From Eledone cirrhosa (lineage: Eukaryota), in contig OZ024746.1 in NCBI GenBank assembly GCA_964016885.1, positions 99,944,001 through 100,008,000 on the forward strand: a DNA stretch of 64,000 nucleotides, written 5' to 3'. A program made the position numbers and the translations under genes. The first letter of the stretch is position 1. Each line of letters opens with the position of its first letter. Positions 22,272-60,097 of the stretch are shown one piece after another. Below the pieces are notes generated by a model. That model ran no database searches. It was not told where the DNA came from and saw only the letters and a program-made list of their open reading frames with translations.

Positions 22272-25200
22272 TAGGGCAGTGAATTGGCAGTATTGGTAGA
22301 GGGTTGGATGCCATGCTAGGGTGGTGAATTGGCAGTATTGGTAGAGGGTTGGATGCCAGCTAGGGCAGTGAATTGGCAGTATTGGTAGAGGGTTGGATGT
22401 CATGCTAGGGCAGTGAATTGGCAGTATTGGTAGAGGGTTGGATGCCAGGATAGGGTGATGAATTGGCAGGATTGGTAGAGGGTTGGAGGCCAGCTAGGGC
22501 AGTGAATTGGCAGTATTGGTAGAGGGTTGGATGTCATGCTAGGGCAGTGAAATGGCAGTATTGGTAGAGGATTGGATGCCAGGCTAGGGCAGTGAATTGG
22601 CAGTATTGGTAGAAGGTAGGATGCCATGTTAGGGCAGTGAATTGGCAGTATTGGTAGAGGGTTGGATGCCAGGCTAGGGCAGTGAATTGGCAGGATTGGT
22701 AGAGGATTGTATGCCATGCTAGGGTGGTGAATTGGCAGTATTGGTAGAGGGTTGAATGCCATGCTAGGGCAGTGAATTGGCAGGATTGGTAGAGGGTTGG
22801 ATGCCAGCTAGGGCAGTGAATTGGCAGTATTGGTAGAGGGTTGGATGCCAGGCTAGGGCAGTGAGTTGGCAAGATTGGTAGAGGGTTGGATGCCAGGCTA
22901 GGGCAGTGAATTGGCAGTATTGGTAGAGGGTTGGATGCCATGCTAGGTTGGTGAATTGGCAGTATTGGTAGAGGGTTGGATGCCAGGCTAGGGTGAGGAA
23001 TTGGCAGTATTGGTAGAGGGTTGGATGTCATGCTAGGGCAGTGAATTGGCAGTATTGGTAGAGGGTTGGGTGCCAGCTAGGGCAGTGAATTGGCAGTATT
23101 GGTAGAGGGTTGGATGTCATGCTAGGGCAGTGAATTGGCAGTATTGGTAGAGGATAGGATGCAAGGCTAGGGCAGTGAATTGGCAGTATTGGTAGAGGGT
23201 TGGATGTTATGCTAGGGCAGTGAATTCGCAGTATTGGTAGAGGGTTGGGTGCCAGGCTAGGGCAGTGAATTGGCAGTATTGGTAGAGGGTTAGGTGCCAG
23301 GTTACGGCAGTGAATTGGCAGTATTGGTAGAGGGCTGGATGCCAGCTAGGGCAGTGAATTGGCAGTATTGGTAGAAGTTTGCATGCCAGGCTAGGGCGGT
23401 GAATTGGCAGGATTGGTAAAGGGTTGGATGCCAGTCTAGGGCAGTGAATTGGCAGAATTGGTACAGGGTTGGATGTCATGCTAGGGCAGTGAATTGGCAG
23501 GATTGGTAGAGGGTTGGATGTCATGCTAGGGCAGTGAATTGGCAGTATTAGTAGAGGGTTGGATGCCATGCTAGAACAGTTAATTGGCAGTATTGGTAGA
23601 GGGTTGGATGCCATGCTAGGGCAGTGAATTGGCAGTATTGGTAGAGGGTTGGATGCCATGCTACGGTGGTAAATTGGCAGTATTGGTAGAGGGTTGGATG
23701 TCATGCTAGGGCAGTGAATTGGCAGTATTGGTAGAGGGTTGGATGTCATGCTAGGGCAGTGAATTCGCAGAATTGGTAGAGGGATGGATGTCATGCTAGG
23801 ACAGTGAATTGGCAGTATTGGTAGAGGGTTGGATGCCATGCTAGGGCAGTGAATTGGCAGTATTGGTAGAGGGTTGGATGCCAGGCTAGGGTGGTGAATT
23901 GGCAGTATTGGTAGAGGGTTTGATGCCAGGCTAGGGCAGTGAATTGGCAGTATTGGAAGAGGGTAGGATGCCAGCTAGGGCAGTGAATTGGCAGGATTGG
24001 TAGAGGGTTGGATGCCATGCTCGGGCAGTGAATTGGCAGTATTGGTAGAGGGATGTATGCCATGCTAGGGCAGTGAATTGGCAGTATTGGTAGAGGGTTG
24101 GATGTCATGTTAGGGCAGTGAATTGGCAGTATTGGTAGAGGGTTGGATGCCAGGCTAGGGCAGTGAATTGGCAGTATTGGTAGAGGGTTGGATGCCATGC
24201 TAGGGCAGTGAATTGGCAGTATTGGTAGAGGGTTGGATGCCAGGCTAGGGCAGTGAATTGGCAGTATTGGTAGAGGGTTGGATGCCATGCTAGGTTGGTG
24301 AATTGGCAGTATTGGTAGAGGGTTGGATGCCAGGCTAGGGTGGTGAATTGGCAGTATTGGAAGAGGGTAGGATGCCAGCTAGGGCAGTGAATTGGCAGGA
24401 TTGGTAGAGGGTTGGATGCCATGCTAGGGCATTGAATTGGCAGTATTGGTAGAGGGTTGGATGCCATGCTAGGACAGTGAATTGGCAGTATTGGTAGAGG
24501 GTTGGATGTCATGCTAGGGCATTGAATTGGCAGTATTGGTAGAGGGTTGGATGCCATGCTAGGACAGTGAATTGGCAGTATTGGTAGAGGGTTGGATGCC
24601 ATGCTAGGACAGTGAATTGGCAGTATTGGTAGAGGGTTGGATGCCATGCTAGGGCATTGAATTGGCAGTATTGGTAGAGGGTTGGATGCCATGCTAGGAC
24701 AGTGAATTGGCAGTATTGGTAGAGGGTTGGATGCCATTCTAGGGCATTGAATTGGCAGTATTGGTAGAGGGTTGGATGCCATGCTAGGACAGTGAATTGG
24801 CAGTATTGGTAGAGGGTTGGATGCCATGCTAGGGCAGTGAATTGGCAGTATTGGTAGAGGGTTGGATGCCATGCTAGGTTGGTGAATTGGCAGTATTGGT
24901 AGAGGGTTGGATGCCAGGCTAGGGTGGTGAATTGGCAGTATTGGAAGAGGGTAGGATGCCAGCTAGGGCAGTGAATTGGCAGGATTGGTAGAGGGTTGGA
25001 TGCCATGCTAGGGCATTGAATTGGCAGTATTGGTAGAGGGTTGGATGCCATGCTAGGACAGTGAATTGGCAGTATTGGTAGAGCGTTGGATGCCAGCTAG
25101 GGAAGTGAATTGGCAGTATTGGTAGACGGTAGGATGTCAGCTAGGGCAGTGAATTGGCAGTATTGGTAGAGAGTTGGATGTCATGCTAGGGCAGTGAACT

Positions 25201-59948: not shown

Positions 59949-60097
59949 TTTCCAGCATAATTACGTCCATTTACGATCTGAGATCAAATCTCTCCGAGGC
60001 TAACTTTACCTTTCATCCTTACGGGGTCGATAAAATATAGTACCAGTAATGCACTGGGATAATTGCTGGCCTTGTGCCAAAAGTAGAAACAATTATT
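59910..60097 (+). mobile_element. tRNA-derived SINE (last head unit plus body) terminating the giant array
   Basis: Degenerate B box GAGATCAAATC, central CCTTTCATCCTTACGGGGTCGATAAAAT, tail GCTGGCCTTGTGCCAAAAGTAGAAAC; homologous to three minus-strand copies at 60.9-63.4 kb. Confidence 0.88.

Follow-up and report, generated by a model that had tools for sequence, protein, structure and literature searches.

Can a tandem array that fills most of an intron be traced to a single retroposon, and did it grow at the very place where that retroposon had landed? The question is raised by a stretch of 64,000 nucleotides from the genome of the octopus Eledone cirrhosa (contig OZ024746.1, positions 99,944,001 to 100,008,000), referred to here as the window. 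The original prediction, made from the sequence alone, held that an intronic satellite of 37.7 kb, composed of about 840 units of 45 bp, is one SINE whose tRNA-like head was amplified in place with the founder still attached.

The array and the SINE at its end

The following features of the window concern the array, the attached element, and its neighboring relatives:

22272..59949, plus strand: tandem array whose units correspond to SINE nt 1–45, from TRF, tiling, and comparison with monomers
22874..33300, plus strand: block duplication within the array, offset 6825–6870 bp, best 500-bp blocks 98.6–99.8% identical, end approximate
43390..52800, plus strand: block duplication within the array, offset 5021–5066 bp, 99.6–100% identical, end approximate
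34936..48493, plus strand: ten units in which a one-base variant creates a match to the B-box consensus
59905..59949, plus strand: last head, 38/45 identical to monomer L013
59950..60097, plus strand: SINE body and tail, 138/147 identical to monomer L013, 5/6 CpGs kept
59980..59990, plus strand: B-box-like motif of the founder, differing from the family consensus by T>A
60953..61083, minus strand: older monomeric relative, 3'-truncated, 66% identical
61130..62388, minus strand: older relative with a 65-bp unit repeated 17 times; its junction is a different one, with short direct homologies at the ends (approximate coordinates)
62629..63381, minus strand: second copy of the young family, 13 heads and a body, with a degenerate target-site duplication and the same junction

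The predicted dimensions of the satellite were borne out. TRF reports a period of 45 with 838.0 copies and 91% matches over 22272–59949, and tiling of the same interval yields 838 units (696 of 45 nt, 114 of 44, and 28 of 46–50), which fall into 263 distinct types. No N occurs anywhere in the 64-kb window, and the array is without a gap. Identical runs of unit types recur within it at offsets of 25, 37, 39, 57, 113, 152, and 170 units, and the identity between units is nearly flat with distance, 92.2% for adjacent units and 91.2% for those 800 units apart. The identity of the two duplicated blocks listed above was taken from an ungapped scan of 500-bp blocks; a perfect twin was found for just 2 of the 38 blocks of this length sampled from the array. 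The consensus unit has lost all four CpGs of the family, so that 0/4 are kept in the head vs. 5/6 in the body (p = 0.048), and at unit nt 5–6 both deamination products are present (CA in 760 units, TG in 57, the original CG in 6). The loss of the head CpGs, the retention of those of the body, and the presence of both products at nt 5–6 suggest that the array heads have been subject to methylation.

The final unit of the array passes without a break into the body and tail of a SINE, the tail ending at position 60097, as had been claimed, and the last head together with the body makes up a full-length element. With this 193-nt sequence as a query, full-length matches of 91–92% identity were obtained at 39 other places (40 of 5028 candidates were scored). 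The 29 close copies that were fetched start at or near the first base of the array unit and end in an ATT tail, and because they begin there the array unit can be identified with nt 1–45 of the SINE. It is these monomers that uphold the predicted identity of the unit, and not the "unamplified paralogue" at 60955–61063 on which the prediction relied: the latter is a minus-strand sequence with 66% identity over 88 nt, matches the array unit at 31 of 45 positions, and with these coordinates starts at nt 21, thus omitting the A-box-like motif.

The family is short (193 bp), non-coding, interspersed, and of high copy number, at least 27,145 copies by exact matches to a 30-letter head/body motif (0 for the control), and can therefore be considered a SINE family. 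Target-site duplications of at least 10 nt accompany 16 of the 26 monomers called by script; the target is ATTAT, and the tail ends in ATT repeats. This combination of a target-site duplication of variable length and a simple-repeat tail characterizes the family and is not seen at the locus 22272–60097 itself. A full-text literature search with a 12-nt motif of the SINE body retrieved no paper. Two decayed LINE copies are located on the minus strand at 17246–21376 of the window, with a reverse-transcriptase domain and, after it, a weak match to a PHD finger; they may represent the partner LINE of the SINE.

The original prediction further envisaged hundreds of A boxes ahead of a single B box, which is correct only in part. 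An A-box-like 12-mer is present in 581 exact copies in the array, none of which fits the strict consensus. As to the B box, the motif of the founder is mutated (T>A), and GGTTCGATGCC, present in ten array units, fits the B-box consensus. Each of these ten variants is situated 63 nt past the A-box-like motif of the preceding unit, the spacing in the family being 65 nt, and the ten units probably descend from one mutation by way of block duplications. As to tRNA homology of the SINE head, ARAGORN found no tRNA in the 64-kb window, and the one monomer searched against Rfam, L014, gave no tRNA match with E up to 10. Both the tRNA origin and the Pol III activity of the family are presumptive. Its sequences are present in 5,796 contigs of sequencing run X1, which as contigs cannot reveal a start, a strand, or a polymerase.

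The myosin intron and the ends of the insertion

The setting of the array is defined by two exons, a short left flank, and a fragment of another repeat:

22135..22206, minus strand: myosin-head exon following the intron, with the splice acceptor 65 nt away from the array
63425..63536, minus strand: myosin-head exon preceding the intron and in frame with 22135–22206
22259..22271, plus strand: left flank starting with the ATTAT target of the family, 10/13 match to the 3' flank, single-copy in the assembly
60092..60141, plus strand: internal fragment, about 50 bp, of another interspersed repeat that is non-coding and about 400–500 bp long, whose left 400 bp or so and last 35 bp or so are missing

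The intronic location of the array is confirmed by the in-frame myosin exons on both sides and by the GT..AG ends of the host intron, which lies on the minus strand and measures 41,218 nt, 91% of it being the array. The best protein match of the host gene is a myosin of Octopus bimaculoides (71%). A contig of 6,977 nt from run X1 matches 22135–22207 with 0 differences and includes none of the flanking intron; the run was taken as RNA since this contig matches the exon only, and the match supports splicing of the intron in that sample, whose allele may differ. On the strand of the gene, simple patterns gave no indication of cryptic splicing or termination within the array (0 pyrimidine-rich YAG, 0 GTRAG, and 0 AATAAA). 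Nothing indicates a function of the array, which most likely is neutral DNA removed by splicing with the rest of the intron. The site is located 2.6 Mb from the end of the 102.6-Mb contig.

Other tandem repeats are present nearby. Between exons of the same myosin gene there is an array of about 21 kb with a 38-bp unit repeated 550 times, covering window positions 1–4743 and a further 16.2 kb leftward, and other myosin introns contain minisatellites of 40 bp × 14 (12906–13473) and 72 bp × 14 (15635–16633). A related SINE family has head arrays of 30 bp × 27 and 29 bp × 15, about 39 kb and 71 kb to the right of the window (L064 and L068), with bodies attached and junctions that show short direct homology. 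The region as a whole is prone to minisatellites.

The ends of the insertion are less clear-cut than the array itself. No target-site duplication was found at the locus beyond the universal 6-nt target, the two flanks agreeing by eye at 10 of 13 positions. A degenerate duplication was rejected, given only this agreement and no second plus-strand copy of the left-flank motif within 224 kb; an ATTAT start that near the array is expected by chance at 4.4% of positions. Neither an alternative haplotype nor a paralogue of the left flank was found in the assembly.

The repeat on the 3' side has 4,952 exact 27-mer matches. Its sampled copies (L031–L060, and L023) are 400–500 bp long, with defined ends and a palindrome close to one of them, and by resemblance only it may be regarded as Helentron/HINE-like; among the features given for Helentron-associated HINEs are subterminal inverted repeats, a 3' palindrome, and a TT target (PMC4067079). 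The repeat is an insertion hotspot, with a SINE tail at the same point in 6 of 30 sampled copies; its left part is kept in five of these six and in L023, with differing truncation points, and is absent at the array locus. A 3' transduction from L023, with which the locus shares 43 nt of 3' flank, was rejected, because the shared flank is this abundant repeat and because same-point tails recur in copies that retain its left part. The truncated host fragment is followed at 60163–60953 by a 17-bp × 12 repeat and a CAC/CAT microsatellite, which may mark the deletion of the right end of the fragment.

Since there is no clean duplication and the left part of the host repeat is missing, the left boundary of the founder would appear to have been deleted, or else two insertions have fused, and a fusion of two insertions is suggested for the array locus. 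Thus, of the view that one SINE grew in place with its founder attached, the identity of the unit, the attached body, and the growth in place can be retained, and one intact insertion as the source of all this would be conjectural at this locus.

Multi-head copies across the genome

The amplification is not the singular event that it had been taken for. Head-multiplied copies of the SINE form a recurrent genome-wide class, of which more than 70 distinct loci were counted by hand in samples of the matches to the head-to-head junction motif; the motif has 12,614 matches in the assembly, 272 of them within the array at 22272–59949. Two exact patterns retrieved 39 loci, ranging from 2 heads (12 loci) and 3 heads (3 loci) up to 34 or more, and larger arrays of 54, 91, and 160 heads (the last being L142/L100) were also found. 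Among copies collected without selection for the junction, 1 of 30 and 1 of 29 were multi-headed, so that hundreds of multi-head loci are likely to be present in the genome.

The array in the window is the longest of the class seen in this analysis. A cleaner example is a sibling array at C1:3023959–3058072 (L140, L141, L179, and L180), which comprises 767 heads over 34 kb and a body, with a 14-bp target-site duplication enclosing both. Duplications likewise enclose array and body at L110, at L119, and at 63381–62629; by script they were called around array and body in 17 of 38 loci, one of the 17 being a false positive. Growth in place is better shown at these siblings, because their target-site duplications enclose the array together with the body.

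All five young-family arrays met without a junction search (22272–59949, 63381–62629, one located 41 kb to the right of the window, L022, and L100) have the same junction, in which nt 45 is followed by nt 1. Microhomology at this junction does not exceed 1 nt, and the identical junction is found at different loci and on several body subfamilies. In L218 (C28:97.57 Mb) two full heads are preceded by a further, incomplete head that breaks off at about nt 19 and is joined there to nt 1, a second junction type.

The multi-head loci are distributed toward chromosome ends. No exact junction match lies at 39–388 Mb of C1 or 40–392 Mb of C2, and 0 of the 39 loci, five of which are on unplaced contigs, vs. 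12 of 35 controls, not all verified monomers and with seven clustered C4 matches collapsed to one before counting, are located more than 55 Mb from an end of C1–C4 (p = 4e-5, the cut-off having been set post hoc). The median distance to the chromosome end is 11 Mb for multi-head loci vs. 45 Mb for controls (17 vs. 37 loci, p = 5e-5). The preference is distal and extends over tens of Mb, a wider zone than subtelomeres in the strict sense. At C4:203.8–204.7 Mb a rare variant of the SINE is present in seven copies spaced by 125–185 kb, which suggests a large tandem segmental duplication.

Two further features bear on the history of the junction. A C>T change at nt 5 of the last head is found in 20 of 39 multi-head copies vs. 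1 of 15 monomers (p = 0.004), an excess that suggests a shared junction lineage; for dimers alone the difference, 5/12 vs. 1/15 (p = 0.06), is not significant. In L110, L147, L184, L195, and L205 the inner heads are complete and the first one is truncated where it meets the target-site duplication; in L211 the first head consists of nt 30–45 only. Local duplication cannot restore bases missing from a truncated first head, and at such loci the junction must have come from elsewhere.

Origin of the array and known SINE-derived satellites

The identity of the array unit, the attached body, the intron, the class, the fixed junction, and the distal bias are established by the observations above. 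We consider that the array probably, though by no means securely, grew in place by unequal exchange from a junction copied in by recombination from another multi-head array. A LINE-mobilized SINE would first have landed at an ATTAT target inside another repeat, and out-of-register repair on an ectopic multi-head copy could then have supplied the first extra head. Unequal exchange between sisters or homologues would have duplicated single units and subsequently blocks of 25–170 units, with methyl-CpG decay stripping the head of its CpGs alongside, and turnover may finally have erased the left boundary that was there originally or merged it with another insertion. Unequal exchange is the established model of satellite growth, and its action here is suggested by the block repeats and the near-flat identity with distance. 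As for the junction, it was likely handed on ready-made, most likely by recombination, and is unlikely to have arisen de novo from a monomer. Transfer by recombination would rest on the distribution of the loci and on the junction lineage rather than on a donor–recipient pair or a conversion tract.

It is unlikely, if worth serious consideration, that the seed was instead delivered by retrotransposition, an RNA with at least two heads being inserted with a target-site duplication and only distal copies expanding. Such an RNA could stem from a multi-head source gene transcribed by means of an upstream A box, or result from a jump of the reverse transcriptase from the RNA 5' end to a loop at nt 46–49. 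The truncated first heads abutting target-site duplications with complete inner heads behind them, including L211 with its remnant of nt 30–45, are what this route would produce, and in the dimers L184 and L187 both heads share a non-consensus base, which is more in keeping with the copying of a single template than with import. Also against import are the pristine heads of some short arrays, such as L192 with 16/16 CpGs, though the search selected for that. The junction, moreover, coincides with the 5' edge of the apical loop (nt 46–49) in a predicted rod hairpin of the SINE RNA. The hairpin is only a prediction, however: its z is −1.6 to −2.7 in three monomers and +0.5 and −0.3 in two array-bearing copies, RNAalifold with 36 diverged copies gives 8 pairs at −0.22 kcal/mol, and no covariation exceeds that of shuffles though 83.5% of cells pair, so that a conserved structure was rejected. 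Recombination is favored because the RNA route predicts dimers wherever there are monomers and none was seen in the interior: 0 of the 12 dimers and 3 trimers, two dimers being unplaced, fall in the inner 39% of the genome. An extended version, in which the arrays themselves are source genes that regenerate A/B-box pairs near native spacing, the LINE reinserts multi-head RNAs that each seed a new array, and the hairpin loop sets the cut point, is more doubtful still; if true, it would close the loop between retrotransposition and satellite growth.

A purely local origin, in which one full-length monomer was inserted and its own nt 1–45 were duplicated by slippage and then expanded, appears improbable. 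It is possible for the array at 22272–59949, the first head of which is complete, and the neighboring related-head arrays with units of 65, 30, and 29 bp and short direct homologies, in a region rich in unrelated minisatellites, are in keeping with it. On the other hand, slippage would have to account for a 45-bp junction with almost no microhomology that is the same across loci and body subfamilies; the loci with truncated first heads stay unexplained, and neither a clean duplication nor the left part of the host repeat is present at the array. Very improbable is an error of assembly, either a misjoin of two loci or a false haplotype duplication inflating a homogeneous satellite. The left and right flanks do not derive from one target site, blocks of 5–7 kb are 99.6–100% identical, and no contig bridges either array edge in X1, the only run of 7 with the sequence. 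A join of unrelated loci is nonetheless excluded by the flanking exons, which are consecutive and in frame. Against inflation speak the lack of a gap, the diversity of unit types, the rarity of perfect twins, the duplications at many different offsets, and the independent sibling of similar size, although up to about 12 kb of the array could come from duplication in the assembly. We retain recombination followed by unequal exchange as the preferred origin.

SINEs derived from tRNA were reportedly described in octopuses by Ohshima and Okada in 1994; like the family discussed here they are octopod SINEs with an A/B-box-like head, a likeness by description only. The octopus SINE OR2 is cited as a CORE-SINE (PMC4758252, PMC5804259). 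No report of octopus SINE head arrays was found among the open-access papers searched. Among other mollusks, PcH-Sat of the limpet Patella caerulea is likewise a satellite with a SINE-derived segment; unlike the octopus array it comes from the 3' part of Nin-SINE, contains neither box A nor box B, and is pericentromeric, and an attached founder is not described in the portion of that account considered here (PMC11121367). Tandem SINE structures are also found in introns of the bivalve Scapharca broughtonii, where whole elements are repeated in 2–15 copies, an arrangement attributed to recombination between target-site duplications, whereas in the octopus the heads only are repeated, by the hundreds (PMC11481361).

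The closest precedent is provided by the SINE-derived satellites of squamates, sSat1–3 of Vassetzky et al. 2023 (PMC10702118). There too, the tandem units are shorter than the SINE and one terminal unit runs to the SINE end, and a locus contains from a few to about 950–1200 units, with alternating subvariants in long loci and a subtelomeric bias. The octopus array has the defining structure of an sSat, namely at least four middle monomers derived from part of a SINE, here 838, and a terminal unit reaching the SINE end (59905–60097). It differs in the length of its unit, 45 nt vs. 67–290 nt in the squamate satellites as described (PMC10702118), in the presence of an A-box-like motif and no B box in the unit, in its one fixed junction, in the many loci that keep both element ends with target-site duplications, and in its molluscan host.

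A single array of this kind is of small weight: it exemplifies on a large scale a process already described, and nothing points to a function. Of greater use is the class to which it belongs, a graded series from 2 to more than 800 units in which the ancestral sequence is known, the junction is fixed, and the starting state is marked by target-site duplications; it permits direct tests of satellite seeding (recombination vs. RNA), of growth in relation to chromosome position, and of CpG decay in relation to array size. It also extends SINE-derived satellites from squamates to a cephalopod.
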